This document shows positions 5,981 to 41,924 of a stretch of 64,000 nucleotides of DNA, one piece after another. Both the position numbers and the translations under genes were made by a program. The notes under the pieces are model-generated. The model saw only the letters and a list, made by a program, of their open reading frames with translations. It was not told the DNA's origin and made no database searches. Positions within the stretch are counted from its first letter, which is position 1. Every line of letters starts with the position of its first letter. The DNA is from Hydrurus foetidus (Eukaryota), in the NCBI GenBank assembly GCA_900617105.1, contig UYFQ01000327.1:1-64000 (forward strand), read 5' to 3'.

Positions 5981-6039
5981 GACAACCACTATGTGACAAC
6001 CACAATGTAGCAAGAACCAGATGTGTAACAACGAACTAC

Positions 6040-15560: not shown

Positions 15561-15835
15561 TTACGAGGTGTGGTACGCACGTACGCACCGAGTCCGGTTA
15601 ACGGCGCTACTCTTTGTATGCATGAAAATGAATGAGTAGTTTAGCGAGCGACACTTTAGATTGTAGGTGACCGAATAAGTGTCGTGGCTAATGAACAGGG
15701 ACATTAGTCACAAGTTTAAATAACAAGTACTGATCGAGAGCAGTCGATTTTTTACGAGTCTTGGAACGTGATACACCACCGGATAGTTCTAGAAACACCG
15801 GATTTCCAACATATTTAAACTGACAAGGAAGCATC

Positions 15836-18800
15836 GTGATGCCTCCAAAACGCGCCTCTTATGCTAAAGATGCAAAGGAATGTATGCTTCAGATCGGGAA
15901 GTACAACAATGTCGTGGCCTGGAACCTCGACGTTAGGGCCTCCGTAGGAGCTACCTACGGCAGCAGCGCCCTATTCCTGACAACGGACGCCAGGATTACG
16001 TTGTCACCTACCCCACCGGCGATGGAGATCCAGCGCCAGTCGGAATGTCAGCTGAGCTGAAAGCGGACCTTAAGAAGGACGCCTTCACTAGCAGACAGCG
16101 AGAGATGCGAAAGCAGAAGGAGGACCAGAAGAAGATATACAGTGTCCTGTGGATGAGGATGTCACCTGCCTCACAGAGCAAAGTGAGAGAGCAGGCCGAA
16201 TTTGAAGTAGCAGACGTCAGTAAGGACTGCGTCGTGCAATGGACTAACATCAATGGTGCACAAGCCCCTATGGTCCGGCTGAACAAGAGGGATTAAATGG
16301 CGCGGTACAACGTGCTCAGACAAGGTGATAGAGAACATGTTGCTGCTTTCAAAATCCGTTATGACGCGCAGGTTCAAGCGGGTGTTGGAGCCGGTCTCAC
16401 CGCCCTCGACGAAGAAACGATGGCTATGGATTTCCTCCATAAGCTCGACCAAAAGAGATTTGGCAAGCTACTGACGCACATGAGGTGGAACGCACTGTTC
16501 AACAATGCCGACGCTTATCCGGCTACCCTGGCCGCAGTAGTCACGATCGCTTCAGACTAGCCAGATGAAGGTCCAAGTTCCGGGAGGTCCGACCCCTCAG
16601 GCAACGATACCCACTCTGCCTTCGTCACCGCAGATTCTTGCTTTGTTACGGAAGCTAAGGATTCTGGAAAGAGAGGTGCAAAAGCTCCGGCGGCCGACAA
16701 AACCGCCCCAGGGAAGAAGAAGTCATTAGAGGAAGTTGAGTGCTAAGTCTGCGGCGAACTGGGACACTACGCGCGCGACTGCAAGAATAGAAAGTCTACT
16801 GCGAAGGCTCTAGTCGCGCAATCGGCGGTGGAAAAGGGCGATGACAACGACGAGTATGAGAGCGAGGAGGAGGACGAGACGGTATATGTTACAACCTTGG
16901 AGACTGTTCTGTTCGCCAAGGACGACGTGCTTCTCGACAGCCAGGCCTCTATCAACGTGTTCTGCAATCGAGCCCTCTTGAACAACGTGAGGAAATCGGA
17001 TAGAAACGTTGTGCTCAATGGCGTCCAGTCTGGTGCCGCCGGGGTGAAGATCACACAAGAAGGTGACTTCAATAACGTGGGATAGGTATAGTACAGCTCA
17101 GAAGCTACAGCAAACATCTTGTCATATGCCGTCATGATCGACGGCAGAAATCGGGTGAGGTACGACCAACGCAACGACAGATTCCTGCTAAGGCCAGTCG
17201 GGAGCAACATGGTATACTCGTTCTGTAGGAAGAACATCCCTGGTAGTGAAGGTCGATTCTACTGCTGCAATTTCAACTCAATGGTGAGCGAACACGCGAC
17301 GACTTATCCGACAGACGATTGCGTGTTGATAGAAACCGAGACTGAGAACATGTCGCGATATACAAAGCGCGAAATCGAAGGAGCGTGCAAAGCCAATAAT
17401 TTGCTCGCTAAGATGGAATTTCCCCTGGTTTCTCAAGCAATCGAGATTGCCACACGCGGCGTCAACTTTACAGTAACGGGTACAGACTTCCAGATAGCAA
17501 ACAATATATGGGGTCCAAATATCGCGTCCTTAAAGGGTAAGACGAAGAAAAATCGCGGACATCCATATTCCGAAACCAACGCTGCAGTAGGAACAAATTC
17601 TATCGGTCGACGTCATGTATGTTGAGGGTGTACCCTCGCTAATCGGCCTGGCGACACCATTTGGTCTCACTATGGCAGTGTCGTTGCTCAGTCTCGATTC
17701 TACACACGGTTCGAGGTCGACTAGTATCATCAGGGATGGAATCTTGGAATTTATATCGACTTTGTCGTCACGGAACTTCGTGACTCGACTCATTATGACT
17801 GACGGTGAGGGTGCAGTGGGATAGATCACTAGAGAGCTGAATCAAATGGGGATAGAGGTCGACATCAGTGGGGCTGGTGGCCATGTTGCTCGTATAGAGC
17901 GTAAAATCCAAACGGCAAAAGGAAGGACGAGAACAATCATGCAATCCGACTATCTCCCATACACACTAACCCGTCTTGGAGTGGCAATGCTAGTACTATC
18001 CTGCGTTTCTAGGTTGAACTATCAGTCATCCGGAACTGGTGGCAGATTCTTAAGCCCGAGAGTCGCGTTCTCAGGACGTCAAGTTGACGAGACCCTAGAC
18101 TTCAGAGCGAGCTTCGGGGAGTACGCACAATACACTGTAGCCAACACCGATAGGTCCATCGCACCACGCATGGAGGACTGCATTGTAATGCTGCCTACAG
18201 GCAACAGGACGGGATCCATGAAGATGATGTCCATCAGGACTGGTAAGCTTGTGACGAGGGATCAATTCAAATTACTCCCCATGGCATCCTCTGTTATCAC
18301 CAGGCTTAACGAGATGGCAGCTGCAGAAGGAAGGATCACCGGCACTAGATCTAGGATAGTGTATGATGCAGAGCGAGGGTTGGAGAAAGACGACGTGACG
18401 TATATCCGGCCAACAACCGAAGACGACGGACCACTCCCGTTCATCCCGGCGGAAGCCAGGGACAGTTACGGAATCAGTCCGCTTGCCGACGCTAACATAG
18501 ACAACAAAAAGAGCGACAGCTACCGGTACGAACCGTACTCAGCTGAGGATATACATGGACGCACAGTACCCTGAGTGCTACCCTCCGCAGCGTCTCATGG
18601 AGCTTAACGCGGATGACCTCGACGAGGGCCCACCAGTAGAGTTCGAAGAGCCCGTTACGGAAGTCCATAGGCATTCCGATGCAGCAATACCGGCCGCCCC
18701 ATCAAGACCAAGAGGTAACTCGGATATCAGGCTCGATACGGTGAGTTCGACACCCACCGCCAGTACCACGCCTCTTCCACTTAGGAGGAACCTGTCGAAC

Positions 18801-20432
18801 CATTACCAACCTGGGGATACGACAGTCCTAGCCAAAAAACACGTGATGAACATCACAGTCAAGGAAGCGCTAAGGAGTAGGGGTGTGGAAGCAGTGCGAG
18901 TCATACTCAAAGAACTATCACAAATGATAGACAAAAAGGTATGGACGCCTGTTCACATGTCCGTACTCTCCAATACGGAAAAACACGGTATTATTCGTTC
19001 GCAGATGTTTCTCAAGGAAAAGTACTTACCTACTGGTGCATTCCAGAAACTTAAAGCTCGACTAGTCGCTGGTGGAAACCATCAGGACAAGGACCTCTAC
19101 GACGACCTCTCATCACCTACTGTCTCCACGAGTGTGGTTATGACAGTGTTCGCCATAGCTGCTCATGAGAAGAGGAGCGCCGTTGTGGTCGACATTGGGG
19201 GTGCCTATCTGAATGCTAGCATGAACACAGGGGTGACCGTGCACATGAGACTCGATGCTAGCATGTCCAGAATGATGACAAAGATAGACCGACACTACAA
19301 CCAGTTCACAGACAACAGAGGGTGCATCGTAGTACGGCTCGACAAGGCATTGTACGGGTGCGTGGAATCAGCGGCGTTGTGGTACGAGAATCTATCTGCT
19401 ACCCTAGCTGGGCTAGGGTATAAGAAGAATGACTACGAGGCATGCGTGTACAACAGGACTGAAGGAGGGGTGCAGTGCACGGTTGCATTCCATGTAGATG
19501 ACTTGATCATCACCAGCGAGAACAGTGAGTATGATCGATGATCTGTGCAAGGGACTCAAGTGTGAGTACGGAGAAATAAACAGACGAGATGGGCCACTGC
19601 TGAATTACCTAGGAATGTCGTTCGACTTATCAGTGCCAGGTGAAGTGAGCATGGGCATGAAAGGGTACACCAACGATGTGATACTATGCGGGGGTATACC
19701 GGGTAAAGCGCGTAGCCCGGCTACTGACGGCCTATTTGACATAAGAGATGGTACGGAACTCGTGGTGGAATCGACCCGGGTATGGTTCCACAGTATTGTT
19801 GCGAAGCTATGGTTCTTGGGGAAGAGAGCAAGACCAGATTGTTTAGCAGCATTAGCGTACCTCGCTACTCGTGTCACTCGCTGCACTGCTGATGACGTCG
19901 AGAAACTTAAACGTTTGTTGAGATACATAGCTGATACCAGAGACAGAGGTGTCGTATTCAGACCAGGCAAATTTGGTTTATCGATGCAGCATACGGGGTG
20001 CATCCGGACGGTAAATCACACATAGGAAGCTGTGTGGTGATAGGTGACTTGGGTGCGGTGCACTGCAAATCTAGCAAGCAGAGTATAGTCACTAAGTCGA
20101 GCACAGAAGCCGAACTAATCGCACTATCTGACTTTGCAAACCAAGGCCTCTATATCCGTAATTTTCTTATCTCGCAGGGACACAAGATGAAGCCGGTGAT
20201 GATCTATCAGGACAACACTTCCTGCATGGCCTTTGTCGAGAGAGGACGCTCAGGAGCAGAGCGCACACGGCACATCGCTATCCGAAACTTCTGGATACGT
20301 GAGCGGGTCACCACTGGAGAAGCTGTCATAGAGCATATGGGGACGAAGGAGATGTACGCGAATGTACTGACGAAGCCCCTCAAAGAAGCACAATTCGTAT
20401 ATGAGAGAAAGTGTCTTACGGGACAGGAGTAA
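15836..20432 (+). pseudogene. Copia-1 gag-pol, broken by stops and frameshifts
   Basis: Knuckle C*VCGELGHYARDC near 16741. Protease LLDSQAS. Integrase IMTDGE and HVARIERKI. RT KARLVAGG, LDKALYG, HVDDL. RNase H SSTEAEL and YQDN. Confidence 0.93.
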
Positions 20433-20569
20433 TCATAACGTGCATTACTGCAGATGTAATGAAATCTATTGCGTGCTGTTTGATGTATTGTGAAATCTAC
20501 TAATGTATTGTTACAAGCTGTTTGAATATAAATAATTCATGATGTTTAATTGCGGTAGCCCTAGGGGTG

Positions 20570-20852
20570 TGTTGGATATTGCGTTATAGGACTACCGTTA
20601 GTTACGAGGTGTGGTACGCACGTACGCACCGAGTCCGGTTAACGGCGCTACACTTTGTATGCATGAAAATGAATGAGTAGTTTAGCGAGCGACACTTTAG
20701 ATTGTAGGTGACCGAATAAGTGTCGTGGCTAATGAACAGGGACATTAGTCACAAGTTTAAATAACAAGTACTGATCGAGAGCAGTCGATTTTTTACGAGT
20801 CTTGGAACGTGATACACCACCGGATAGTTCTAGAAACACCGGATTTCCAACA
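20570..20852 (+). repeat. Copia-1 3' LTR (283 bp)
   Basis: Direct repeat of 14832-14861 plus 15567-15811, with about 2 substitutions seen. Confidence 0.95.
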
Positions 20853-20864
20853 ATACCAATAGTA

Positions 20865-21317
20865 CCGTCGAGTGCCTATTCTTTTGCCATTTTCGATTTC
20901 CGGTTTTCGGAATTTTGGGGATATTTGGCTGTTTTCCAGCAATTTCGCGACAACTAGAGAAGTGGGGACCCCGATGAGATCTGTCAGGTGTTGCTTGAAG
21001 TTGTCCGCATCTTTTGATCTATGATGGTCATGCACCTACGATGAGCAGATCGGCTGCAAATCGCGATCCAAAACGAACTTTCGGTCCCTTACAATCGAAA
21101 TTTCTCGATTTTGGGGGGCGTAGATTAAAAACTGAATAGGCAGTGTAGCTAAAATAACTATGCTCTTTCCGAATCCACTATCATATTTGAGTGAAATTCT
21201 ATGTCCGAGGCGTTAGCAGTTCCCGTTGGCAATTACCGTGACGAAATTTACGTGATTCTGACCGTTGTCAAAATCCTCTTCTCACTTCAAAAGGGCAAAA
21301 GAATAGGCACTCGACGG
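20865..21317. mobile_element. MITE, Tc1/mariner/pogo-like (24-bp TIR, TA TSD)
   Basis: TA|CCGTCGAGTGCCTATTCTTTTGCC ... GGCAAAAGAATAGGCACTCGACGG|TA. Confidence 0.88.
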
Positions 21318-23554
21318 TATACGAAAATTGTCGACATCAAAACCGATGGAAAAACCGAAAATCGAAAACCGGAATAATTCTTTCACAAAGGGGTTTTGGT
21401 TATTTTAGACGACACTTCGCCGCCCTGTTGCAAAGTTCCGTCTCCGACCATATGTTTTATTTTGTTTGAGTGTAGATACGGGAAATTGGGCTTCTTTTTG
21501 TCCTCTGATGAACATACTGCCTAAAACACACCTTCGCACTCACAATACAACAGCTTCATCAGTTGTCGACGTAATCGACTTTTGAGTCGTGCAAAGTGAT
21601 TGCTTTGCTGTAGTTAGTCATCGGCGAGCACGACAACGGGATCTGAGGAAGACTTCTGTCGGAAATCGGTTCGCAAGAAGTCGTCTTTTTCAACAGCGAT
21701 TAGGTGAGGAGATCGATATTGTGACTTCTGCCAATTGGATTGTCCTTTTAGCTCTAGTTTACGATCAGAAATCTATTTTAGCATTAGAATCAGTCAACTG
21801 CGCCCAGGTTGACGCTCTCTCTGATTCTAAATGTCTAATTTACGAGATCGTGTCAAATCTCAGGCATGATCATTTTGCACAGCTTCAAGTGCGGAGCTAG
21901 ATGGTCCTTTGCTCTTCGCGGCAGGGCATCGACCAACAAGTATTATTCCTGCAGACCACCGTCACAGCCTGCTACCTGCAGGACGCAATATTGTTCACAA
22001 TGTCGCATCTTTGATGTGTGTCCGATTACCTACCACAAATCTTTATCTCCGATGAACTATGATTAAATTTTGCTTCCTGACTGAATCCCGACTAACAAAG
22101 CCATATCTGACACTAGACGAAGCTCTCGCAATTTATTTTTAAGTATCTCTCGCAGATACTGATGATTCGCCAGGTCAGATGTGCGCTAGTGCAGGAGTCA
22201 TGCCACCCACCTCATGTTATGCGGGCGGCAAATCCATCGCGCATCTTTTCATTTGATCGCTTCTCGATAGATTCCCTCTTGATGTACTGTCTTTTTGCTT
22301 CATGAGCTGTTGACATCAACTGTAATTAATGAATCTGTATTTCAATTCTCCTTCCTCTCCTCTCTCGACCAATTTGGGGCAGAATCCACATTTCTGAGCA
22401 TTCCATGGCTGCCACCATTTCATTTGATTCCCCTCTTCGATCCGGGGCTTCTTATAGACTTGTAATGTGCGCAAGAAAAATTCAGAGCTCGTAGGTAATG
22501 ATATTTCTGAAGAAATTACTGAAATAAACATGGTGCGCTTATCTACGGTAAAAAAAATCAAAGTTGAACGAAGCCACGCCCGCAACATCACTAACGGGAC
22601 CGAATGAGATCCACATAGGGTAATTAGAGGTAGATTAAAACCATCGGCAACGTCAAAAGCGCTGTATTCGCGACGCAAAGGCATCATCTCCAACTTTCTT
22701 GCGCAATGATTTTCAGATGAATCGGAGAAAATATCTTGGGCGCCCCAAAGTGGGCGCACTTTATAGAATCTGATTTCTACAACATATAGAAATCGATTGT
22801 ACTTGGTTTTTTTCAATCTGTTGCAGAAAAATTGATGGAATTTGGTCAGTAAACGCGATTTCGAGAGGTTTCCGCTATCTCAGCGGATTATCATTAATTT
22901 TCGATGAATTAAAAAGTTGCTACAGCAACCTAGAGAACAGTGCAACCTGCGTCTGAAGATACCTCAAATATTCTCAGATATCGTCAGTTGAGTGATATCT
23001 TGCCAGAACAATGCAAAGTTGAGGTATGCTAGGGTAGGTATAGAACTTGGATCGGTATGAGGCCGATTTCCCGTATTCTTGGAAAACGGAAAATATAACG
23101 TCCAGTGCCTATTAATGTGTTTTACGGATTCGCCAAAACATGCATATTTTGGCATATTTAAAAAAGCTCTTCAGCTGCTATGATGCCAACGTGCCGGAGA
23201 TTATCGAACTGCAGTAATTCGGACATTTTAAACAAGATATTATCTGATGTCGTGATCATCTGAGGAGTTCTTAACTGTCAACTTGTCACCTAAACTTACG
23301 ATTTTGTCCATCTCGGTACCGGGGGTTGGAAATTTTGCAAACCACGAAATAGCTAGAGAAATTTTGAATCGGCAGTCCACCCTTAAAAATCACGCTGAAT
23401 TCGAATCTTCAATTAGGTCGTCATGGTAAGCAGCATTGATGGAGATAGCTTTTTCAATTGTCTTCGAGAAATTGAAGATCACGGGGATTTTGGTGAATTT
23501 CGGTGATTTTGACCGGAGGCAAATTTCCTTATTTTCCACTCCGAAACACATTAA

Positions 23555-23579
23555 AATAGGCACTCGACACTCGACGGTA
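23555..23579. repeat. Orphan right TIR of the same MITE family, with a 7-bp internal duplication
   Basis: AATAGGCACTCGACACTCGACGG|TA compared with AATAGGCACTCGACGG|TA at 21302-21319. Confidence 0.65.
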
Positions 23580-23711
23580 TGGTCGGAGACGGTAGAGGAG
23601 AACTGCAAACCCTCCCTTTGATTAAAAATTTACTCTAACATCATATCATCTCTTCTAATATTCCAGCAGGAAAATAGTCTGACATCACCTGAATGAGATT
23701 GAGTCGCAAAG

Positions 23712-25549
23712 ATGATGAGCTGCAGTGCGGTGGCTAATCAATTTCTCGTTCAATTGATCAGCGATTTCGTGCTGAAAGATAATTGCTTTGCATGTGATCA
23801 AGTTTGTGCAACTCTCTCCGTGAGAGCATTCGAAGCCGTTTCTCAAAAGTCCTCAAAGAATAGCATTTGTAACTTTGCTGTGATAGCCCGTGAATACTTG
23901 TGGGAAGTTCTCCATTCAAAAAGTTGGGTCGATGTTCCGCTGCAATATCGAGATGCCTTCAGTCTGTTCTCCATAATAGTAGCGTATACGATTTCCGATC
24001 AAACTCTCAATTTATCGATCACAAGTGACAAGTTTAGACTTAATGTTATGTCTATAATTGATTCTGGCATACTGCTTGGTTCGGCATCTTATCATCCCAT
24101 TTTGTTGCAGCTGGTAGAAAGAATAGGTGGGGAAATGATTGAATATCCCAATCTTCTTGAAGTAAAAGGCGAATTTTCCATCGTAATCGATCGATTCTCC
24201 CAGCGGATAAATCTCTTGCCACGGCCAATATCTATGAGGATCTTCTTATCGAAGTCGGAAGACGTGTCGGTTAGGGCGAGTAGCGTAGAGCGTATCAGAG
24301 CTCCTCATCTACTGCAATTTCTCGAAGTACACCTACTTCTGTCGAGACCCGTTGTACTGACAGATTGCATGGAAGAGTGGAGTGCTCTTAAGAAATGGAG
24401 GAACCTCGAATACTATGCCCAAGGTATCCTTCATGACGTCTGTATATTTCTCTGTGATAATGAGAACCTATTTTGGTGTCTGTGATCGATCGGAGTGAGT
24501 ACAGATCAGATTGTACAGTCTTCGTATATCTTCTAAATTCAGGGCGTTTGTTTAGTTGCAGGCAGCAGATCGGTCCCAGTTGAGATAGGCTCCTCTTACC
24601 TGTCCAGTGATTACAATCAGCAGCTCATGACACTAACAAGCTTCATATCGCGATACATAATCGGCATCGAGAGAGATCCACAGGAGACAGGATACCTCGC
24701 TCAACATAGGCTGCTGGATCAGATTCCGCAGTTAATGAGGGACATTATCACCCCGGACTACTGTGCACTGCTGACGCCTGAAGACGAGCAAGAAGTCGAC
24801 CCTAGTGCCAGCACAACTGGCAGTGTAGATGATGTTCTCGTCAATGCTTGGCTGGGTCCCAATACAACAGTATCTCCACTGCATCATGATCCATACCATA
24901 ATCTTCTAGCGCAAGTGGTGGGGTATAAATACGTTCGTCTCTATGACCCCAGTCAGTCAGTCTTTCTCTATCCCATGACGGACCACAAGAGCAACAACAG
25001 GTGAGCATCTCGTACTTACACAACCGACGGCACTTTTCATTCGAGATTTTACGCACTTTTCTCTCGACCTACAGTCAAGTTGATTTGACAGCAGTGGGAG
25101 AAGATGGGAATCAGTTTCCGCTGTCAAGAAGTGGATCCTGCTGCTTTACGGAAACTGTGCTAAAGCCGGGAGAGATGTTATTTATCCCAAGGTTAGTATA
25201 ATTCTACACGACCACATATTTGCATTGCACCATAACGAATGCAATGATTAACCGATGGTTTTGCTTGTACAGGTGGCATTGGCACTTCGTGGCCGCAATC
25301 GACGAATGCGAGGCCAAAGAATGGTTTGACAGGAATGGTGGATGTACTTCACCAGAAAGTGATCATTTGGATACAACGAATTTAAGAAAAAGAAAAGCCA
25401 TGACATCGATTGTACACACTGATGAAGCCATTGATTCGCCCACTGCTCAACCAGTGCTTCCCGGACGTGACAAATCAAGAAGCCAACCTGAATTTAGTTC
25501 TTCAGTAAGCTTTTGGTGGGGTAGAAGGATATTGAAACCAGACAGCTAA
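23712..25549 (+). CDS. JMJD5: JmjC-domain protein, JMJD5/KDM8-like; exons 23712-24423, 24556-25000, 25075-25191, 25273-25549
   Basis: Motifs WEVLHS..W..V, RPVVLTD..W.AL.KW, AGSRSVPVEIG, GYLAQHRLLDQIPQLMRDIITPDYC, NAWLGP.TTVSPLHHDPYHNLLAQVVGYK, LKPGEMLFIP, WHFV and SVSFWW. Three in-frame GT-AG introns. Confidence 0.93.
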
Positions 25550-25785
25550 ATTACCACTAGAAATCTTCATGTAACAGTAGTTTTGATTGGATATTTTATT
25601 AGACTTACACGCGCAATAATTACAGTAGGACATTCTCGATACTGTGTGCATATTGTAGCGATGTGTTGCCTCGCGGTGTTTACGAGCATTGAGATTTCTC
25701 AGTTATTTCATGAATTGTGTTGCAGTTCTCGACATCTGAAGCAGAAAATCTCAAAGCTTAATTTCCAGTCATAATTAATGGACAA

Positions 25786-26661
25786 TCATGCTGCATTATT
25801 GGACTGAATTATGATAGCTGTGCTATGGCGAAGATTTTCAGCTGGCACTGAGCAACTCGAAACACCCATTACTTCAAGGAACAAGCTCTCCCGGTGATTC
25901 AGATTGCCGGAGTAGTCCAGATGCAGTAATTCCTTATTAGAATTCCTGTTTCTCAATGCAGATATTACAAAAGGCCTGATATCAAATGCACTGATTCCAG
26001 TATGAGAAAGCACGCTAATACCGTCAAAATTTCTCGTCAGGAGGATTCCTGTCACCTTCGGCTCCCACACTAGTTTGTTGTATGAATGCAACTTTAGACT
26101 CTTCGGCCTCAGTTCTGTCTCGTCCATTCTCAGCTCCTTTGTGTCAATTCCTGATTCGTTAAGGTGCGGAAGACCGCCGTCGTTATATTCAAATCTGTAG
26201 CATACATGTCTGATTTCATTTATCATGCATAACAGCTGTGCACATTCAACGCAAGGACTGTATGTGACAGCGACATGAAGGGATCCAAGTGGCGGCGGAA
26301 AAGTGCTCAAATACTGCGCTAATGCGTTCATCTCAGCATGAACACCGACATGACGAAGAAAGGAGTTGGTTGCTCTGATCAGCACAACGTTGCCACTTAA
26401 TATCAGACAGCCAACTTTCTGATTCGTTTTTTTTGAAGGGCTGAGGAGCTCAATATTTTTGAGCTCGCTCGTCAAGAAATCATCCCCCAAATTGGTCAGA
26501 CAATCTTCAACTGTACAGAATTTTGTTTGTTGAAAATGGTTTGCTCGGCAGACATTTGCGAATCGTTGTTTTGGAAGGAAAGCAACGGATTGGAAAAGTG
26601 AGATGATCAATAATACTGAATAATGAAGCCATCTCACAAGGTTCCGCTCACTGGGCATCAC
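25786..26661 (-). CDS. Zn-dependent CMP/dCMP-deaminase-family protein with a putative bipartite (signal plus plastid transit) presequence
   Basis: HAEMNAL and TYSPCVECAQLL (HxE...PCxxC), plus QKVGCLI. A hydrophobic N-terminus ends in QSVA-FLP. The ORF is intronless. Confidence 0.82.
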   Translation of the reverse strand: MMPSERNLVRWLHYSVLLIISLFQSVAFLPKQRFANVCRANHFQQTKFCTVEDCLTNLGDDFLTSELKNIELLSPSKKTNQKVGCLILSGNVVLIRATNSFLRHVGVHAEMNALAQYLSTFPPPLGSLHVAVTYSPCVECAQLLCMINEIRHVCYRFEYNDGGLPHLNESGIDTKELRMDETELRPKSLKLHSYNKLVWEPKVTGILLTRNFDGISVLSHTGISAFDIRPFVISALRNRNSNKELLHLDYSGNLNHRESLFLEVMGVSSCSVPAENLRHSTAIIIQSNNAA

Positions 26662-28230
26662 ATACGAGAAGCATCACTGTTGGACGCACGCCTTGATACT
26701 GCATCTTGTAGAGCTGTGACTGGAGAGCTTGGGCTTAGGCTCTGAGTTAGGGTCTGACACAACCGGCTCTGAGAATCCCCAATCCGGCTTTTTTTCCGGC
26801 TTTCAAAACCGGCTCTGCTATCTCGACAACTATGAAGAATTTTTAAACTTTCATTGCAGATTTTGAACACCCAGAGTGTGTTCTATCAAAAGCAATACCA
26901 AAAAATGCCATAAGTCACAAAATCCCTAATCAGCAACGTAATTTCTGCCGTCAACGTGATATCCCGATATCGCCATGAAAAGTAGAAACTGTTTTGGTCA
27001 AAAAACATCTTAAATTTTCTATAATGAACCGTTTTCAATTTTATTAACGGAAAATCCGCAACAGACAGTTGTTAGCATCTGACCGGATGCGAATTTCGAT
27101 TGACAACATATTCTCAGATCGAAGGAAGTTCCAAACGCAGATCATCTCTACACTAAAGAGCAAATATACAAGTGGTCAATTGGGAAATGTAAATCAGCAG
27201 GATTTGCCGCGTGATTGCTGCCGTTGTTGAGGTGTGACCTCGAAGCTGATAAGGTGAGGATTGATTTTTAATCTTTTTGTGATTGCTGCGGATGCCCCCT
27301 CAGAATTGATTTTGGTTGCTGACATCACCACAGTTGTCAAAACTCCATCTCAAGCTAATGAAAAGTTGTCTAAGGTATCACTATGCTTGAAATTAATGAA
27401 TGTAGGCGTGAACAGTGCCAGCATCAGTTGGCAGTGTTGGCGAGGTTTCGCCAAATAAGCTAGTAAAAGTCTTCATTAGGAAGCTGGTTTCCTAGAAACC
27501 AAAATAGCTAGACAAATGAGACGGATATCTTTGAGATGCGAAGGCTATCTCTCGTTCAATCGTTGAATTTGGCTTTGACCAGTCTCAGCGGCTGAAGTAA
27601 GTGATGGGTGCCGCGTGCATAATTGTCGATGTATTAGCGGAACGTCATCCTACAGACGCATTTTACGTTTGTAGATTGATCAAATTGATCACCAGAGAGC
27701 TTTTATTTGCAGCTAGTAATCTAGCATCATTTAAAATCATTGATTTCTATGTTTGGCGATGGGTGGATTTGCTCAACATGTGTACCCTCAGGCAGCCGCT
27801 TGACCGTGGTGCGGTTATCACAGTCGATACGACTGACAGTAGATGGCCAACGTTGGACATCTGCTGGATTATGATGTCAGTCTTTCAATCGGCGCTGCTG
27901 ACGATGTCGCTATCTACAGCGTAGTGGGACAGCTGCTTGCTGCTTGATCATGGCGTAGCCATCACAGTCAGTTCAACTGACGGTAGACTGCTGACGGCAG
28001 CAAGGTGCGACATCTGCTCGATCGTGATATTGGCCTCTAAAGCGGTGATGAGGACGGTGTCGCTGCCGTCATCAGTAGCCTAGTGGGAAAGCAGCTTGAT
28101 CGTGTCGTATTCAGAACAGTCGGTACGACTGAGTGCTGACTGCAGCAACATGAGACATCTGCCGGGTTGTGACAGAAGTCTCTTAATCGGCGACGCTGAC
28201 GGTCAGCAAAATTATTCGATAAAGGACAAG

Positions 28231-28400
28231 TTAATGAAAACAAAGGGAGTCAAAACTTTAAGAGAGTAAATGAAAACAAAGGGAGTCAAATGAAAACGAA
28301 GTGAGTCAAAACAAAAAGTGAGTAAATGAAAACAAAGGGAGTCAAAACTAAAAGTGAGCAACTGAAAACAAAGAGAGTCAAATGAAAAGAAAGTGAAGGT
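28231..28400 (+). repeat. A-rich minisatellite
   Basis: Repeated AATGAAAACAAAGGGAGTCAAA variants. Confidence 0.85.
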
Positions 28401-28614
28401 ACTCTACAAATATAAAATCGTTTTCCACGGATGAGAGCATTATCTTCTATTAGTCTGAAGCATGCATGACAGCATAGAATAATCTTCAAGGGCGAGTCTT
28501 TGTCCATTGCCGAAGCAGCATTTTAGAGTCGAGAAGGAACGCTCCGCAGATCCTGATGATGTTGTGATAGTGAAGGCGTACTGAGCGAATCGAGCCAATT
28601 TACGAGGGTACCGT

Positions 28615-29565
28615 AGTATGGCGTGCCAAAGGTGTTTTTATTATTTTCACCGTTTTCCCGAGGATCCCGTACTTTTCTTTCTCCGCTCCTACGGTACCCT
28701 CGCATCTCCAAACTCCAAACCATCATACACCTCTCAACTCATAGCACTGTAGAAAACGCATATAGAAGATTCAAAAGCTGTCCATGAAAGAGCACTTTTC
28801 TCAGGATAAGAATGCTTTTAATTACAATTTGTTATGCTCTACTGCGATATCTTCAAGACATTCTATACAGTGTGTAATGTAATGACCACAATATTCTATT
28901 CTATCAGCAGAGCAATAATCCGCGAGATATTTGCAAAAGTGATGGTGATATTGAGGTGATGTTTTTGAACGCTTGTAACTATAACAGCAAATGCCACATA
29001 ATACATGAGACGCTAAGAATTTGCAAGCATCATGACAGATATACTTTGCTACTTCGCTCAGAATTTCGTGTGAATTGAGCGGCTCAGTTGCAAAATAGAG
29101 AGGAACTATTTTTTTAGACAAAAATGGCATCAAAAATTTTCGGTGGAATGGAACATTTGGCGTCAGCCTTTGACGTATTAAAGCTCAGTAGCTAGATTTT
29201 GGTGCATTTTCAAGCAAGAATCAAGCGTTAGAAGAGTCTTACCTGCTGTCGCAGATACTCTGTATGGTTTGGAGATGGTGAAATCTCCTGTTTTCGTGAG
29301 TCTTCGGGATGCTTGATTTCTCTCGTGATGAAAATTTCCAAAGGTAGGAGTAGCGGCTATAGCTGCTATGATAGGCATCTTGAGGAACTGCTGATTCACT
29401 TTTCCAACTGGAGTGAAGCTGCATTTTCTACAGTGCTATGAGTTGAGAGGTGTATGATGGTTTGGAGTTTGGAGATGCGAGGGTACCGTAGGAGCGGAGA
29501 AAGAAAAGTACGGGATCCTCGGGAAAACGGTGAAAATAATAAAAACACCTTTGGCACGCCATACT
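28615..29565. mobile_element. Non-coding element with inverted repeats of about 145 bp (foldback or MULE-like, unclassified)
   Basis: 28615-28760 is the near-perfect reverse complement of 29420-29565 (AGTATGGCGTGCCAAAGG... / ...CCTTTGGCACGCCATACT). Confidence 0.85.
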
Positions 29566-29666
29566 GAGCGGAGAGAGAGGGGGCGGATCTCGCACTCGAA
29601 CGATTGACGTCCCCCTACGTCTTAGCCTACTACAACGCCGCTGTCCGCTTCAGCTGAAGACTGAAC

Positions 29667-32600
29667 TGTTGATGCCGACGGATCAACTGGGAAGAATCGA
29701 AGGTCCTGATTCAGTTTGGTTGAATTAGATTATGTCAAAGGAGTGAAGATGATCATGTGATTCAGTAGAAAGCACCTGCAGGTTGGTGAGTTGTCACTTG
29801 TCCGTAATCATGCAATGTTTCAGTGGTTGTGTGATTGCATTCAACATCATGTGATTGTTATCTACTGTGTCCTGAATGCAGTGATTCTCGAGTTTGTCTC
29901 GGTAGAGAAAAGCGGATTGTGTTTCCACGTTCCGCAGGTGGCGCGCACACGTCTTGTTATATCGACAGTATCAACACACTCTCTCAATTTGGCTTTTGTT
30001 TACCTTACTTGACTAGACAGCGGCACGTTGCGCAGAGGATTTCTGGAAAGATTTGGCTGGCGATTGCGGTGTGTGGACAAGAAGTGGCATGAGTACCTGG
30101 TGTGTCTTAGCCGGTGGGGGTTTGGTGAAGAAATCAGCTAGATTATGTTCGCCTTTACGCCACTGTATATGAAAATGTCCTTGGTTTACGCGGTCTCTGA
30201 TCTAATGGTATCGCATATCGATTAATTTTGTCCTTTTTGCTTTGACTGAGTTTATCGCCATACCCACTGCGCACTGGTTGTCGCAGAGTATTAACGTGGG
30301 TGATTGCGTGTAGCCCATGTTTGAGAGAACCTGCCGCAGATATTCCCCGTCTTGGGCCAGAAGGAAAAGCGCCGCATACTCTGCTTCTGCGGCACTAGCA
30401 ACCACTGATGGTATAATGGTGCTGACTGCATGGATAGCACCATTGATGTGATGAGGCGAGCCAGCATTTCCTAGATAGCAGATGCCCCCAGCGACAGAGC
30501 GTGCTTTTGGCCGAGATAGGTAGGAGGCGTCTGCTTGAATGAATAAGGTCATGTCGCACGCGTGGTACACTAATTCGTTGTTAGGGTATCGCGCGCAGTA
30601 GCGTAAAAGGCGGTCGGCAATCTCCTCAACTTGCTCTGTGGGGGCCGATTGCAGCGATGCGATCAGATTCACTGTGGGCAGGAGTGTGACATCGACGCCT
30701 CGGGCGTAGAATAGCCGAAATCGTCTACAACTAGCGCGAAGGTTGTTCCGTTTGATGAGTGTCTGAATAAGCATGGAGTGTCGGTCTGATGGTACTGATG
30801 TTTGCGTAAGTGCTCAATGAGTTTTTGTTGTGCTAAGTACCCTGCCTGCGGCAGTCCGTACATCCCTTTATTAACTTCGAACAGAATGGAATTGTTGGAC
30901 ATGAATCGCTCTAATTTGTGGGCCGCCAGAGTGGCAGGGGGAATAAGTTTACGTTGGATACGAATGTATTCTGGCCGGGATAGTGGCGTATTCAAGTAAT
31001 AGTCCTTGATGTCTAGTGTCATCCAATTGCTGTCATCGCTGACAACTGATTGCAAAAGGATTTTGACGACAGGCATTGCGGCGGTGTTTGCAGAGGTCTC
31101 TCCCGGGTAATTGATCCTGTCACCGCCGATGGTGCCTCGTACTCTGTATGTTCGGTTACCTGTTGCATCTTCCTTCTCTTTAATCTGCGGATTGTAGTAG
31201 CTGGTGTCTTTTCGACGATGCATTGGTTGCTCATGAATGTGTAGGGGTTTCATTGTGTTTGATGAAAATAGTCGGTTAAACTCTTCAATCTCAGCTTGCC
31301 GCCACTGTAGTTCCTGGTCACCACGAATGGCCTTTGCGTATGTTAAGGGTGACCCGTCTGGCGCCAAGTTCAGGGATGATACAGCTGATGCTGATCCCGC
31401 GGTTGTTCTACTGCGTGTCACCGGTGGCTCAGGCTGCGTTTTTAACAGCGTAGTTTTTGAAACGGGGAAAGGTATATTTGGTGCAGTGGCCTCTGTGGGT
31501 AGCATGACGTTTTCTGTCAGGTTAACGCAATGGTCGGACTGCGCCGCACTGTTTATGGTCTGAGGTGCAACTGTAACTGACGATTTCTCGATTAACAGCG
31601 GAAGCGGCGGTGCTTGTTCTTGATTGGGGTCTGCTGGTAACACCCTCTGTTCTGCGTCCGTGTACTGTAGTTGTGACGACGGTTGTTGCAATTCAGTCGT
31701 CGGAATGACGTCGGGTAGGGTAATGGGTTCGGAAGGTGCTATGGCGATTTCAGTTGCTGTCGGAGTATCTGCAAGTTGCAGAGTCCTTGGGCAGAAAGAT
31801 TTCACAAACGCCTTCAAGTCCTTGAGCATTGTATGAGGAACATCATGCAGTTGGCGTGAGTGCGCTGTTGCAGGGTGTGATGTTGCTAATGTGGATATTG
31901 CTGCTGCCAAGTCTTTGATTGCAGCTATGGCAACGTCATGGGGTCCAATATTAGGTAGTACCACTTTGTCGAAGATCCAACCCAGTGTGTCAGTTACTCT
32001 GATGGATTGTGTGTCGATTGACCACACACTAAAGCAGCGATAATGCTGTTGCGCTGGTCCTAGGTAGAAGCCGAGCACACCATGTGGTGCCCAAGTACCG
32101 CGGACAGTTGGCTTGTCGTGGATAATGACTTTGGTGCCTGCGGGCGCTATGGGATGCGCTCGAAAATCGAACTGTCGCCCGTGTAAGCCCTCATAAGCAG
32201 AGATGTTGGGATTAGGACTGTAGGGTATAAGGTGATTCAAGCAAAGTTCTGCTTGCGGGAGCAGTTTGTCCCACAGAATCATTGGAAAGTCGGTGGATAC
32301 TGTGCATAAGGTCGCGATGAAGTGGTTCTTGAATGTTCTGATGGCGCGCTCTGCTTTCAATGATCTGTGTTGTCCTGGAGGGCAATATTGTATTGAGACA
32401 TTGTTTTTTGCTGCATATTCTCTACTGCTAAGGACGTCTCGTTGTCAAGCCTTTGAAACAGTGGCTTATGCCCAACCTTGTCCCAGAATGCCAGAGTGTT
32501 TTTGTATGCGTTGACGTAGTTTGACTGGTGACGCGATGGTATAGCTTCGCAATGGATGTATCCGTCTAGTACTGATACGAACACGTATTCGGCACCGGAT

Positions 32601-34755
32601 AGGGCCTTGACTGGAAACCGACCCGTTAAGTCTGAATGTGCTGTTGGTGAGAGAGACAGTGTCTTTGTGAAGACTGTTCTGCGGGGTGATGGCGGGTGGT
32701 TTGCTTCGTCTGAATCTTCAGGATGATCGTCCAATGATGTCGAGTCGAGGCCCTGGCGGTATTGATCTAAATGTCCCCTAGCTGTCGCTGCCGTGAGAGA
32801 GAGGTATGACCTAACCATAGTGGCAGTCAACCGTGGATAGGAAGAGAGGTACCCTTACCGCACTGCGCGAAGTAGAGTGGAAAGCGAGGGACTGCCGAGT
32901 GTTGTGTGTATAAATGTTGCGAAGGAGGCATCGGTATCGCTACGGAGGATTGCTGATGCTGCCGTGGCTGCTGTCGATTCCACAAGTGGTCTGACTGCAG
33001 TACAGTGAGACCATCTCTGGTAACATGCATTTCCTCGCTTGTAAAAGTGGCAATACATCCGTTGTTGCACAGTTCTGAAATGCTGACAAGTGATGTATCG
33101 AGAGAGGCATCAGGAAATATATGTGCCGTAAGCGGTGCTGGTAGATGGGGCAACCACAACTCTCCAACAGATGAGGAGCTCATAGTGTCACCGTTAGGAA
33201 GTGCCGAACGGATGTTGCTGTTGTGTCGTACGTTGCTTAATGTGACTGCATCCGTTTCTCGCAGTAGTATATGCGAAGATCCCGTGTCAGCACACGGTAG
33301 TTGGGTGACTAGGTGGGCCGATGAAGATAAGACTTTTGGACTAGAACAAGGTTGTGTTAAGTTACCGTCCAAAATCTTAACTTGATGGCCGATTTGTCAG
33401 AGTCCGTGTATGGATCCATTTGCAACATCGGTATGGGTTGTTGCTGCCTTCATAGCTGCAGTGTACTCTGGTAGGGCAGCCATCTATCGACACTTGGAGC
33501 TGCTGTGGGAGTTGTACCCATGTTTGAAACAGTAGGTGCGGTTGGATGCGTCAGTCGATGAGTTTGCTTTCGCTTTGTGGGGAAAGGCTGCCGAAATCCG
33601 TTTATCTATATATGCTGCGAAAGCCGCCGACTCTAGGTATCCCGTTGGCATATTTGTAACGGCAGACACCGACGCTGCGTATCCGAGGTCTACGGGGGCT
33701 GGTGTAAAATTGGGCGCCTGCTCGGTGATATGATTGACAAGTCCAGTAAACGTCTGCTGCACAATGTGTGGATGCGCAGTCAGGTATGATGTGATGGCTG
33801 TTGTGTAGGACATGTGGGAACCGATAGCCGCCCGTAAGTACCGGCACTTGTCGACCTCGGATAGTCCCTGATTGGCCGATAGGAACTGGCTGTGCCGCCA
33901 ATTCGGAAAAAGTCCTACTTCCTATTTTCGTGTTGAGATCTGTGCGGAAAGAGTCGAAGTCAGAGGCTAAGAAGGTCCCATATCGTTCCCGTAACTGGTC
34001 CAGTAGTTGTTGGCACGATATGGATACGAGGCCGAAGAATAGATCGCTTAGCTCGTTTTCATCAGCGTCGGGGAGGCTACTGATGATAGCGTTCTTCAGT
34101 ACCCGCAACGCTTCGGATATAGCGGAATTTCTCCTGAAGGTTATTTCGTACTGTTTTAAGTTTGCTGCTGGTGCGCCCAGTTCGGGTGGCGGCGTGAGAA
34201 CGACAATCGGCCGATTCATGATTATAATTTCTCCTTCGTTGGCTGGATTGTTCATAGCGATGCCAGGAAGCATTGCCCATTGCGCGTCAGAAACGCAAAA
34301 ACCTAGCAAGCCGTTGACTCCCAGGTGTTCCTGACAGCGACTTCCGAATGCTGTATTTGTTGCTCGAAGGAAAGCTTGCATGTTTTGCCTGCTGTTCGCC
34401 TTGATGTCCGGGAGAATCACTTCAGTCATTGTAATTTAATTCAACTGTTGATGCCGACGGATCAACTGGGAAGAATCGAAGGTCCTGATTCAGTTTGGTT
34501 GAATTAGATTATGTCAAAGGAGTGAAGATGATCATGTGATTCAGTAGAAAGCACCTGCAGGTTGGTGAGTTGTCACTTGTCCGTAATCATGCAATGTTTC
34601 AGTGGTTGTGTGATTGCATTCAACATCATGTGATTGTTATCTACTGTGTCCTGAATGCAGTGATTCTCGAGTTTGTCTCGGTAGAGAAAAGCGGATTGTG
34701 TTTCCACGTTCCGCAGGTGGCGCGCACACGTCTTGTTATATCGACAGTATCAACA
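29667..34755 (-). mobile_element. Copia-2: Ty1/Copia element with identical LTRs but defective coding region
   Basis: 310-bp LTRs at 29667-29976 and 34446-34755, identical by eye. TSD TGAAC at 29662-29666 and 34756-34760. PPT (minus strand) GAGAGAGTG. Confidence 0.96.
30202..34429 (-). pseudogene. Copia-2 gag-pol, fragmented
   Basis: Knuckle YCFKHGYNSHSSSKC. Protease CADTGSS. Integrase SDLTGRFP, RLDNE, AERAIRTFKNHF. RT LDIKDYYL, KGMYGLPQAG, VVDDF followed by an internal deletion. RNase H ADASYL, SAAEAEY, CDN. Confidence 0.93.
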
Positions 34756-34760
34756 TGAAC

Positions 34761-34988
34761 ACCCAAGACCCCAAGACTCCGTCATTCCTACTGCCCTCAC
34801 ATCCGACTCTACTACCCCATCAGTGCGCGTCATGACGAAGACTGACCACTCAAGACACCAAGACTCCATTATTCCTGCTACCCCTCTCCATCATTTTCTT
34901 CTACCCCATCAAGTGCGACTCAAAAAAAACCCTGACAGAGACATAAAGAGCGAAGAACGTGGACCCAGACCCAAGACCCAAGACCCAA
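34761..34988 (+). repeat. Short degenerate repeats (CCCAAGAC units and a duplicated CCAAGACTCC...ATTCCT motif)
   Basis: ACCCAAGACCCCAAGACTCC at 34761, ACCAAGACTCC at 34857 and GACCCAAGACCCAAGACCCAA near 34968. Confidence 0.55.
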
Positions 34989-35297
34989 TTCCGGAATGAG
35001 ATATTATCAGCAGTCAGAAAATTATTTTAAGTGCATTATTTTGCATGTTACATAAAGTCTTTTTAGCATTGTTTAACTCTATGCTCATTCGGATCAGTCA
35101 GACCTTATGATACTAAAATTACCCTGTGTGTAATAAATTATCTAACGTCACCATTAAAGTCAACCCCACTATTACCCTACACTACAAAATCATGTTATGA
35201 TACACCATTTGTGAAACTCCAAGTAAACGGAGCATTTTTGAATCCTAATGCGTTTTCATTCGCGTACACCAACCCGACAACTCACGCCATAGGGGTG

Positions 35298-36183
35298 TGT
35301 CGGAATAACTAATGAGTTAAGTAACCGTATAAGTTATTATGTATGCTGTGTGGTAGTCGCTACTCCATCGGTCCAGGTTCCTTTAACCCAGGAACATCAA
35401 AATGATGAAAGTGCACCATGTTTGACTGTGCGGGACAGATCGAATTTGTCGACTGTCTCCATGAACGATGTAAGCGATGTTGCATCGTTAATTACCTTAA
35501 TACTCACACCAGCAGAGCTTTCGCCTTGAGCCCGGGATTGCAACTAGCGCACGTGTTGAACCTGCAGAAGGAGCGCGTACCCAGGAAGGATATAGTTGTC
35601 CATTCAGTGGAAACTGAATCTTAGTGTACGACATAATTAACGAGTTGCTTTCGTTGCAAACAGTTGCAACATGAAAGGCAGAGGCAGAGGCCGAGATAAC
35701 AATACCGCAGGCGGTCGAGCAAACCCTGCCAACGGTGGCAGAGGAAATGCTGGCCGCGGTGCGAAGCCTCCACCAAGAAGAGGAACGGTAGCTGCGATCG
35801 GCGCATTCCTGGAACTTGGAAGAGAGATGAACCATGGCAGCGGAAGCGCATGGATGAGAAAGTTTCGCGAGTATACTCGCGCAAACTATATGTCCGATAT
35901 CTGCGAGATATTCGGCAATGAGGGCATACCGGGTAATTACACGCAATATGTCGCTCCAGTTGACATAGCAGCAGATGCTGGCTTTATGGCGGCAACAAAG
36001 TGGAAGAGAACACTAGAGCTCTACGACAAGCTCATCCTAACTTTGAGAGAAAATAGAAAGCAGGTCTTCGGGTTAATGCTAGGACAAATAAGCGAACAGT
36101 CGACATCGACAATCCGAGAAACGGAATCGGGCGCTACCGCCATGTTAGAGGAGGACCCACTACTATTGCTATTAGCGAAAACA
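35298..36183 (+). mobile_element. Copia-5 fragment: one 336-bp LTR (35298-35633) plus truncated gag start
   Basis: TGTCG...CGACA is preceded by AGGGGTG, the same PPT as Copia-1. The ORF from 35671 has a gag-like QVFGLMLGQISEQS segment resembling Copia-1 KIYSVLWMRMSPAS. It is cut at 36184. Confidence 0.8.
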
Positions 36184-37680
36184 CTTGAGAAGCAAGGATT
36201 TTCTTGTCGAAGGGCAGTCCTTTTTTCAGGGTGAAATCTGCTACTACTAACTTCCACGCAGATTTTTTATTTTTGATGTTAGAATACATACCGTCAGAGT
36301 GCTCACATCAAGCCACTTCACGGAGCCCGCAACTTAAATCTGCACGCTGGACTACATATCTAGAAATATGCTGAATAGACGACCGTTACTGCCGATAAAA
36401 AAGTTGCATCGCAGAAACCTTCAGTTATAGCACTTCACGAATCAGGGCAATCATTTCCATCACAACTTTGTGTGATTTCTCGTGCCCCAACTTTTTTGCC
36501 GAGCAGCTTTTTCGTGGAAAAACTGAAGGCTCGAGAAACTACAGATTTTCTTAAAAACTAAGGTTTTTGGTGTAATTTTCGTTTCCCGAACGCACCCTTT
36601 GGGTTCCTTATGATAAATGCCTGGGATTGCCATATAAATTTACGAATAAACCCTTATATTAGAGGAGTAATAGCCAAAAGGCGGAAGCTATCGGACCGCC
36701 AAAAAAGTTGACCGTAATCCGACACAAAGTCGGAAACGTCGGTTGTGTCAGAACCTAAGCTGTGAGCTGTGAGATGTGAGCTGTGAGGAATTGGCCCTAT
36801 TCCAACTCGTTGGAGTTGGGAGTTGAGGGTTTTGGAGTTGGTAAAAATAGCCCGTATAATTTTGATGGGCTTTTTTACCCACTCCATTTTCGTTTTCAGA
36901 CTCCAAAATTTAAATCGTGGAGTTGGACCCGCACCTTTTGAGTTGGGGTGAAACACCCAGTAAAATAATGTAAAACTCAAATTCTTGTGGTGTACCGGAA
37001 AATCCGGTGTTCACATGACTGACAAATTTTACCAACTCCAAATCCCCAACTCCTCAACGACGGGTGCGTTCGGTAAACCGTGAAACCTTCATTTTTCGAG
37101 GTATTTCTGAAATTTTCCACGAAGGCCTTCACATTTTGGGAAATCATGTTCGGTAACAAACCTACATCATCACATCTGGAGGAAAGTAGTGATTCCAGGA
37201 AGAACGAGTATTTGTTCCTTTTGCGGCGATGAGGATTCATTTGTCGTAGAGAAACTTCTACCGAACGGAATGACGTGAGATTTCAAACTCTCTTGAGGTA
37301 AGCAGCGCGATTTCCCTACTCTTGACGGCTTCTGATGCCACAACTTTTCATGGGGAAACTAGTTGAAACAACTCTCATCGAATGTCACTTGTTAAAGCAG
37401 GACTTTTAGCATCTTGGACTGACGTCAACAAGAAGGTCTTGATTGATGTCTTCGCCGCTTTCTCGGGAGGGTGTTCAAGCAGTGAGCAACGATTGATCGA
37501 TCCGATATCCCCACCAGGATCCCAGATCCCGGATCTCCGATCGATCATCCCAGAAGTTTGGCACAAATGAAATGTTCAATCGTACGAGAACAGTGTACGC
37601 TCTGGCGGGGACGCTGGAACATCTTCATACTGTACGTGTAAGGAGTGAGCGTAAAGTATGGGATGAAGTTGAGACTGTTC
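36184..37680 (+). repeat. Copy A of a composite repeated segment containing Harbinger-type TIRs
   Basis: 36184-37097 matches 48419-49352, 37484-37508 matches 50898-50923, and 37514-37679 matches about 52266-52444. Confidence 0.9.
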
Positions 37681-38492
37681 TGTTGGTAACCGTGGCACAA
37701 TATGTTGTACACATATAACAATCCATACCGTTTTGGCTTCGGCCAATTACAGCCATCAGTATTGCGTGACTGACCGCAGTCATAGCTTACCGCATTCACC
37801 ACCATAATTTAATCACAACAATCGTCGAATAGTCCAATTCGTTTGACACGTTTGATATGCAGTACGCGATCAACAGTTGTGATTAGATCTCTTCGCTTGA
37901 CAATGGAGAGCACGACGCCAATTAATTTACATAGTCATATACGACAAATTTTCTTAGTATGGCGAAGATCGATAATCGAGGCGTACGGACAGTCCTGTAA
38001 TATCTACAACCAACACAGACTGCTGGGATATTGTCAGACTAACCACTAACGTAGTTACGTCTGTTGTATAGTAGTAGATATAGTAGTATAGATACACGTT
38101 AGGTAGTACTGTATACATATATGTATATGCGTAACTGTACGTACACCATAGAACGTACACTGTACATACCAGATATGGCCGTTGGCGATACATCCCATAT
38201 TCGAAAGTATCCTTTCAGTGCCAACAACTGCTATGACCTTTCTTGCAACGCCACACATGATTTCACCTCTACCTTGCTCGCCACCTCGTTTGCCAGGTAG
38301 CCAATCATATGTTAGTTGCATATGTAGGTTGCCAACTGCAGATCTTCTGTATCTTGTAAACCTAGGCAGATCTTAATCGATATAGCTTGCACGCCGACAC
38401 AGCGTTCTAGCCGAATCTTGGAGTTCTACTGCAGTAGCCTCCACACCAGTTGGACTATACGTCATCAGGTGATATCCTTAGCCAGATCCACA

Positions 38493-38501
38493 TGGTAGCG
38501 A
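38493..38501 (+). promoter_or_regulatory. Primer-binding site of Copia-3 (TGGTAGCGA, initiator-Met-like)
   Basis: TGG, complementary to tRNA CCA, follows the LTR-terminal CA directly. The tRNA identity is inferred. Confidence 0.7.
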
Positions 38502-41500: not shown

Positions 41501-41924
41501 GCAAGGAGAAAGCAGCTGACCCAGCCCAACCAACATCAAGCAGCATGACTAGCTCATCAAGAAGCGTCATAACGACCCCGCGGTCATCAGCTAGTGTTGG
41601 AAGCGGATCAGCGGCATCACGAAAGAGCACACCTGCTACATCGACTCCTCAGCGCCTCCAAAGCGGATCCTCTGCATCCCACGGTATACACAGCGGATCA
41701 GCGGCACCATCCAGTGTGCACAGCGCATCAGCGGCACCATCGCCGGCTCCCAGCGCCTTAGAGGCATCACCAGGACCCCCCACACCAGCTCTTCAACATC
41801 AGCCACGTTCAGGCAAACCATTTGTAGTCGACCTCACGGCCCCAATGCCACCACGGAGGGCGAAGGCCCCAAGGCTAAACTGAACCTCCTGCACGTTGTA
41901 GGGCCGGCACATCGAGTCCTGGGG

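Follow-up and report, generated by a model that had tools for sequence, protein, structure and literature searches.

Ty1/Copia retrotransposons of Hydrurus foetidus and protist relatives carry a primer binding site complementary to their own long terminal repeat, suggesting self-priming

The Copia elements of the window and their anchored LTR complements

The window analysed here is a stretch of 64,000 nucleotides from Hydrurus foetidus (contig UYFQ01000327.1, positions 1 to 64,000), in which nested and decayed retrotransposons lie between host genes. Textbook Copia elements rely on host tRNA for priming. In four Ty1/Copia elements of this window, Copia-1, -2, -4 and -5, the primer binding site (PBS) that directly follows the 5' long terminal repeat (LTR) is complementary to a segment of the element's own LTR, and the first-pass annotation had proposed that such elements prime their own reverse transcription. 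All four copies are broken by frameshifts, truncation or nesting (Table 1). A fifth element, Copia-3, served as internal control.

Pfam RVT_2 matches were obtained for Copia-1, -2 and -3 and for intact relatives, and colinearity with two of these relatives, P0121 and P0001, gave the domain order of Copia elements, with an integrase-like stretch upstream of the reverse transcriptase (RT) in the translations. In Copia-1 the order gag-protease-integrase-RT-RNase H was read through colinearity with the intact P0121. RNase H motifs were readable in the translations of Copia-1 and Copia-2, and the integrase domain rve gave no Pfam match in the window Copia elements. The LTRs have the hallmarks of Ty1/Copia, namely TG...CA ends, target-site duplications (TSDs) around Copia-2 and Copia-3 (TGAAC and GATAT) and polypurine tracts (PPTs) at the Copia-1 3' LTR and the Copia-5 LTR; no TSD was visible for Copia-1, -4 and -5. 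On the RVT_2 matches and the colinearity with P0121 and P0001, we assign the window elements to Ty1/Copia.

The eight motifs listed in the first-pass annotation were all found at their places, the four motif pairs are correct and the loops between them measure 89 (Copia-1), 52 (Copia-2), 56 (Copia-4) and 139 nt (Copia-5), as it had claimed. In all four elements the first base past the LTR opens the pairing, which runs through 9-10 nt of exact complement to the element's own LTR. The longest anchored perfect complement is 10 nt in Copia-1, Copia-5 and Copia-4 and 9 nt in Copia-2, which was equalled in 19, 11, 32 and 52 of 20,000 dinucleotide shuffles, respectively (the intact 3' LTR was used for Copia-1, and the LTR start of Copia-4 was set one base short). 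In contrast, the control Copia-3 has a PBS starting with TGG and an anchored match of only 5 nt, a length reached by 15,066 of 20,000 shuffles. The anchoring seen in four out of four elements is not a product of chance.

For two elements the LTR end is defined independently of the pairing: the 5' and 3' LTRs of Copia-1 diverge just past CCAACA (15811/20852), and Copia-2 has two identical 310-bp LTRs flanked by its TSD. Copia-4 and Copia-5 have a single LTR each in the window, and their ends were set by the TG...CA termini, by the PPT (Copia-5) and by the gag ATG, which lies 27 nt (Copia-4) and 37 nt (Copia-5) downstream of the LTR. With a single mismatch allowed at 34436, the Copia-2 match reaches 14 nt; a T>C change in other Copia-2 copies (6 contigs of run X1 and 2 contigs of run X3) removes this mismatch and makes the 14-mer perfect. 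One further 10-nt match was found in Copia-2 at a downstream offset, so lone matches of 9-10 nt do arise by chance. When RNAs starting at the match were folded, the duplex was predicted with pair probabilities of 0.85-1.0; in Copia-5 the pairing was lost (0.03) if the RNA began 25 nt upstream, because the primer was then trapped in a hairpin of U3.

Table 1. Positions of the Copia elements, candidate self-primers and putative primer binding sites in the window.
Feature	Position	Strand	Remarks
Copia-1 5' LTR, 5' part	14832-14861	+	~700-bp insertion before the rest; first 8 nt missing
Copia-1 5' LTR, 3' part	15554..15811	+	258 nt; 98.8% identity with 3' LTR
Copia-1 candidate self-primer AGTTTAAATA	15713..15722	+	predicted start of R
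Copia-1 PBS TATTTAAACT	15812..15821	+	first 10 nt past LTR; 19 of 20,000 shuffles
Copia-1 gag-pol, frameshifted	15839..20432	+	tblastn; RVT_2 match
Copia-1 PPT (..TAGGGGTG) and 3' LTR	20556..20852	+	LTR 283 bp, 20570-20852, TGTTGG...CCAACA
Copia-2 gag, pol and 3' LTR	29667..34435	-	pol frameshifted, protease-integrase-RT-RNase H; 3' LTR 29667-29976
Copia-2 PBS GTTGAATTA(A)ATTA	34432..34445	-	base 10 (34436) is a private mismatch
Copia-2 5' LTR	34446..34755	-	310 bp; identical to 3' LTR 29667-29976; TSD TGAAC
Copia-2 candidate self-primer	34498..34511	-	9-nt core 34498-34506; 14 nt in total
Copia-5 PPT and LTR	35281..35633	+	LTR 336 bp, 35298-35633, TGTCGG...ACGACA
Copia-5 candidate self-primer TCGTTAATTA	35485..35494	+	
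Copia-5 PBS TAATTAACGA	35634..35643	+	
Copia-5 gag	from 35671, cut at 36183 by 0.9-kb repeat	+	
Copia-4 probable 5' LTR	37681..37875	+	195 bp, TGTTGG...TCAACA; left end lacks confirmation by a second LTR
Copia-4 candidate self-primer	37807..37819	+	10-nt core 37810-37819; 13 nt with one G-U
Copia-4 PBS GTTGTGATTA(GAT)	37876..37888	+	
Copia-4 gag	from 37903, Copia-3 inserted, resumes 45957-48418	+	
Copia-3 (internal control)	38032..45951	+	LTRs 38032-38492 and 45505-45951; TSD GATAT; TGGTAGCG at 38493

The elements are interleaved. The ~700-bp insertion in the Copia-1 5' LTR spans 14862-15553 and has TTACGA on either side. The insertion of Copia-2 interrupts the apparent 3' non-coding part of a copy of the Copia-5 family (29566-29666 and 34756-35633), a family with a very high copy number in runs X1 and X3. 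Since the Copia-5 LTR has a PPT in front and a PBS behind, it is the shared LTR of a tandem. One 0.9-kb repeat (36184-37109 and 48419-49362, 96% identity) ends both Copia-5 and Copia-4, and the RNase H region of Copia-3 contains a near-perfect palindrome of ~230 bp (44964-45195).

Covariation of the PBS and the LTR among relatives

The search for relatives returned 240 proteins. For the nucleotide comparison, metagenomes were scanned with a Copia-1-like alignment (78 loci) and genome contigs with a Copia-2-like alignment (15 loci); among 318 pattern matches in a scan of viral contigs there was no relative. From these 93 loci, 33 were dropped because they lacked a pol end or a PPT match or extended less than 230 nt past the LTR start, leaving 60 scored loci, of which 41 have gag or pol homology behind the LTR (gag-linked) and 19 do not. 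The LTR start was taken from the PPT and candidate LTR ends from the terminal inverted repeat, and shuffled LTRs were scored under the same candidates. In many loci the pol end, PPT, LTR and gag are contiguous, as in circular or permuted assemblies. The 15 loci that carry prokaryote labels (L079-L093) probably represent eukaryotic contamination of binned genomes.

The four elements belong to two lineages. Over 186 amino acids of RT-RNase H, Copia-1 and Copia-2 share only 30% identity, and they fall in two well-separated groups of a tree, a quick version built without a named reference and without Copia-3, -4 and -5 that gives diversity and the two lineages, not placement. Copia-4 groups with Copia-2, with 40-60% identity to P0001. 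The PPT and PBS start of Copia-5, together with weak gag matches (L018 and L029), place this element in the Copia-1-like family. We take the integrase and RT motifs of Copia-2 and Copia-4 to resemble those of diatom Copia elements. One Copia-2-like relative (P0046) comes from Spumella vulgaris, and the best named matches of a KDM8-like host gene were a 905-aa record labelled as a mite, followed by Ochromonadaceae sp. and Pythium; together these point weakly to a stramenopile host.

A perfect anchored match of 9-25 nt was present in 31 of the 41 gag-linked loci versus 5 of the 19 loci without linked gag, and the shuffle test gave P ≤ 0.05 in 31/41 and 3/19, respectively. The ten misses were revisited post hoc: six have a match of 10-16 nt with a variant LTR end, a G-U pair or a mismatch, one match is apparently deleted at the junction and three loci are without any match. 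The LTR ends in CAATA instead of CAACA in L041, L066, L079, L083 and L087, all of which keep the anchored match. The first-pass annotation had suggested examining whether PBS and LTR covary; they do, as the match to the own LTR is kept in these 31 relatives while the sequences differ. Together with the four window elements the matching relatives form a set of 35 elements, and the first 9 nt of the PBS are distinct in 34 of them. On average a PBS matches its own LTR over 12.0 nt and the LTRs of other elements over 4.6 nt; a cross match of 9 nt or more occurs in just 3 of 1,190 comparisons. Close relatives show the same turnover: L056, L059 and L065, whose RT-RNase H regions are 86-90% identical, yet have different matches of 21, 25 and 19 nt; L080 and L088 (84% identity) have unrelated matches of 12 and 11 nt at aligned positions; and L021 and L028 differ by two compensatory pair differences. 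What is conserved is the geometry, with loops of 40-195 nt, and, in the Copia-1-like family, a PBS start of YAATT.

These data bear on one alternative, that the matches are chance inverted repeats in AT-rich sequence. The matches are indeed 81% A+T, and lone inverted repeats of 9-11 nt occur elsewhere in these regions. The dinucleotide shuffles, the cross-element controls and the matches of up to 25 nt refute this explanation, which we rule out on the anchored matches of the relatives and the cross-element comparison and regard as having a negligible probability.

A second alternative is that halves or fragments of host tRNAs prime these elements, with the complement in the LTR arising as a by-product. 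Among Copia elements, Osser, Bryco and Bianca (PMC6317226) and FunCo1 (PMC5445492) are known to use half-tRNA primers, and a generic anticodon-arm (half-tRNA) pattern fits 8 of the 35 sites at some offset among those tried. At the first base, however, it fits only 2 of the 35, and among the four window elements no offset tried gives a fit. No TGG lies within 5 nt of the LTR end in any of the 35 elements. Under tRNA priming there would also be no reason for a perfect LTR complement, for 34 distinct sequences among 35 elements or for unrelated sites in close relatives, and we consider it very improbable. As for the control, the Copia-3 PBS (38493-38505) reads TGGTAGCGATT and agrees only in its first 7 nt with TGGTAGCAGAGC, the initiator-tRNA PBS given for GalEa (PMC5445492).

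The start of the RNA and the nature of the primer

If the match is to act as primer it should open the RNA. At its outer end a CA is found in 23 of the 35 elements, whereas in a comparison set of 1,174 AT-rich inverted repeats taken from similar regions the share is 19% (P 3e-9), and the CA remains in 21 of 30 when each close cluster is represented by one element. This fits an initiator at the match start. Directly past the PBS match there is a C in 17 of the 35 elements (22% under the null, P 6e-4); with close clusters collapsed, the count is 12 of 30 (P 0.02). A reverse transcriptase that copies a capped primer to its end would add a C, and the excess of C hints weakly at copying up to the cap. 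Upstream of the match no TATA-like enrichment was found in the 35 elements, only a T-rich stretch.

From these observations we consider it very probable that two divergent Copia lineages prime minus-strand DNA synthesis from the 5'-terminal 9-25 nt of their own RNA, in the manner of the yeast element Tf1, and not with a tRNA. The PBS, from the first base past the LTR, matches the element's own LTR in letters that vary from element to element. Transcription would start within about one base of the outer end of the match, or a few bases farther out in the Copia-2 lineage, and a start at this position would make the match the 5' end of the RNA. This end is predicted by folding to pair with the PBS over the loop of 40-195 nt. 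By analogy with Tf1, the RNase H of the element would then cut where the pairing ends on the 3' side, leaving a 3'-OH from which U5 would be copied, beginning with the LTR-terminal A. We further speculate that plus-strand strong-stop synthesis copies the RNA primer, so that the PBS would be rewritten in each cycle; such rewriting would explain matches that are long, purely Watson-Crick and fast in turnover. The self-priming proposed in the first-pass annotation is well supported by the covariation in the 31 of 41 relatives, by the lack of tRNA-type sites and by the initiator-like start, while neither a start nor a primer was observed. Its fixed primer of ~11 nt is not upheld, as the match varies from 9 to 25 nt in the relatives.

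Several points weigh against this interpretation. Mapping of transcript 5' ends had been suggested, with ends expected at or just before the complement; two RNA runs of the same species label, from which about 6 in 100 reads were sampled, gave 93 reads each over 33900-38700, too few for a start site, and marked no start, neither at the complement nor elsewhere. Read-through from a different locus accounts for most of the reads on the Copia-5 LTR (23 and 18). About 10% of the LTR depth of the high-copy Copia-5 family shows C>T at primer position 2, with no compensating change among the PBS variants listed; a G-U pair would remain, and a PBS is absent from most LTR copies. The duplexes are short, with 81% A+T, and the 35-element set was chosen by match length, so that its purely Watson-Crick character is partly built in. 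The comparison with tRNAs used TGG and the generic anticodon-arm pattern, and within the window itself ARAGORN found no tRNA gene. Finally, side duplexes of the type found in Tf1 were not enriched over shuffled loops (4, 1 and 3 of the 35 elements at P ≤ 0.05, mean z about 0); Copia-2 has a local hairpin in U5 (P 0.01).

The absence of these side duplexes would also fit priming from another copy, in which the own RNA still supplies the primer but as the 3' end of R after loss of poly(A), or from a dimer partner, and in which no 5' cut is made in cis. A segment that opens R would occur at either end of the RNA, the sense reads on the Copia-5 LTR drop to zero near 35478-35510, close to the match as though R were short, and YAATT, the conserved beginning of the PBS in the Copia-1-like family, is almost a palindrome. 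Against it, the CA at the outer end fits a 5' end, and no poly(A) ends are listed at the Copia-5 match; trans priming by the 5' end of a partner is indistinguishable by sequence from priming in cis. We judge this explanation unlikely.

The pairing might alternatively be a long-range structural stem that serves packaging, translation control or recruitment of RT, with another molecule such as a small RNA as the real primer. Retroelement 5' untranslated regions often carry such stems, and here the stem lies 13-55 nt ahead of the first ATG in 33 of the 35 elements, where it could regulate translation. The inner end is too exact for this: pairing halts at the LTR boundary in 25 of the 35 elements, one extra base is possible in the other 10, but never a second. 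Only 1 of 35 has a G-U pair as its first outer position, and no TGG within 5 nt offers another primer site. A purely structural role is improbable, slightly more so than priming from another copy. Rfam models gave no match in 20 of the 93 loci and only three sub-threshold matches in the window region 14500-48500, and no ribozyme family matched in either set.

Comparison with known systems and significance

The mechanism of self-priming has been proven in Tf1 of Schizosaccharomyces pombe, where the PBS anneals to the first 11 nt of the RNA and the RNase H cut falls between bases 11 and 12 (PMC7175516), and where two further duplexes beside the PBS are needed, forming a 'pretzel' (PMC10085805). 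The present elements share with Tf1/Tf2 and the Tf1/sushi group of Ty3/Gypsy chromoviruses, including Tj1 and Tcn1, a PBS that adjoins the 5' LTR, a complement in the LTR segment that would open the RNA, and a probable independence from tRNA. They differ in being RVT_2 Copia elements with the integrase before RT, no chromodomain and a match of 9-25 nt. By RVT_2 and the lack of a chromodomain they are not members of the Tf1/sushi group. Unlike the 'pretzel' of Tf1, potential side duplexes here are no better than in shuffled loops, and the system is known from sequence alone.

For Copia as a whole self-priming is not new, contrary to what the first-pass annotation implied: it was predicted by the same sequence criterion in 89% of 203 elements of the plant TAR lineage, with an earlier proposal for Houba and Osr-1 cited in the same paper (PMC6317226). 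The TAR elements are likewise Copia elements with a PBS complementary to their own 5' LTR. TAR is described from plants; the sources of the present elements are a probable stramenopile and aquatic metagenomes, and the elements form two lineages 30% identical to each other. The present relatives score only 32-86 bits on Pfam RVT_2, and these low scores and the non-plant sources argue against membership in TAR; we infer a separate origin. What is new here are the hosts and lineages, the variable primer length and the lack of detectable side duplexes. A description of self-priming in stramenopile Copia elements was not found in the literature searched, outside of which lay most subscription journals, GyDB and Repbase, and no experimental proof of Copia self-priming was found in the accessible literature. 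The diatom CoDi elements (CoDiI and CoDiII; Blackbeard and Surcouf) are, as those described here may be, divergent stramenopile Copia elements outside the main Copia branch, and in the accessible main text of the paper describing them the terms 'primer binding' and 'tRNA' do not appear (PMC2806351).

The fungal GalEa Copia elements also lack a tRNA PBS. Their Conserved Hairpin Site (CHS) keeps its sequence and pairs with a segment farther downstream, and according to the authors there is no complement in the LTR (PMC5445492). The same paper gives a CHS variant, CTAATTAGT, that is similar to the TAATTA start of the present elements. The present elements do not belong to this type, as their sequences vary and the complement sits in the LTR. 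A chromovirus-type Gypsy element of the window (LTRs 6040-6246 and about 14445-14651; RT-RNase H-integrase-chromodomain) has neither TGG nor an LTR complement at its PBS position. Its positions 6246-6257, AGTAGATCTACT, which take in the final A of the LTR, form a perfect palindrome of 12 nt like the GalEa CHS (PMC5445492).

Two further mobile sequences lie in the window. The element at 28615-29565 has terminal inverted repeats of 146 bp (99%) and is probably a non-autonomous DNA transposon, and an open reading frame on the minus strand (4199-6049) with matches to an OTU-like protease and DUF6570 is likely part of another transposon.

A broader claim, which we put forward tentatively and think less likely than not, is that two or more deep protist Copia lineages generally prime without tRNA, independently of plant TAR and of Tf1 and without side duplexes. 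In these a capped 5' end would prime and be copied, cap included, into the new PBS; primer and PBS would then be renewed jointly in each cycle and be free to change in length and sequence. If two distant protist lineages do self-prime beside TAR and Tf1, tRNA-free priming would have arisen repeatedly or be old, with consequences for the proposal that the tRNA PBS was preceded by hairpin priming (PMC3601003). Self-priming would, in addition, explain why annotation based on the PBS misses these elements and may place them beyond the reach of PBS-directed silencing by tRNA fragments, and the elements would provide a natural series of 9-25 nt primers in which the requirements of the RNase H cut could be tested.

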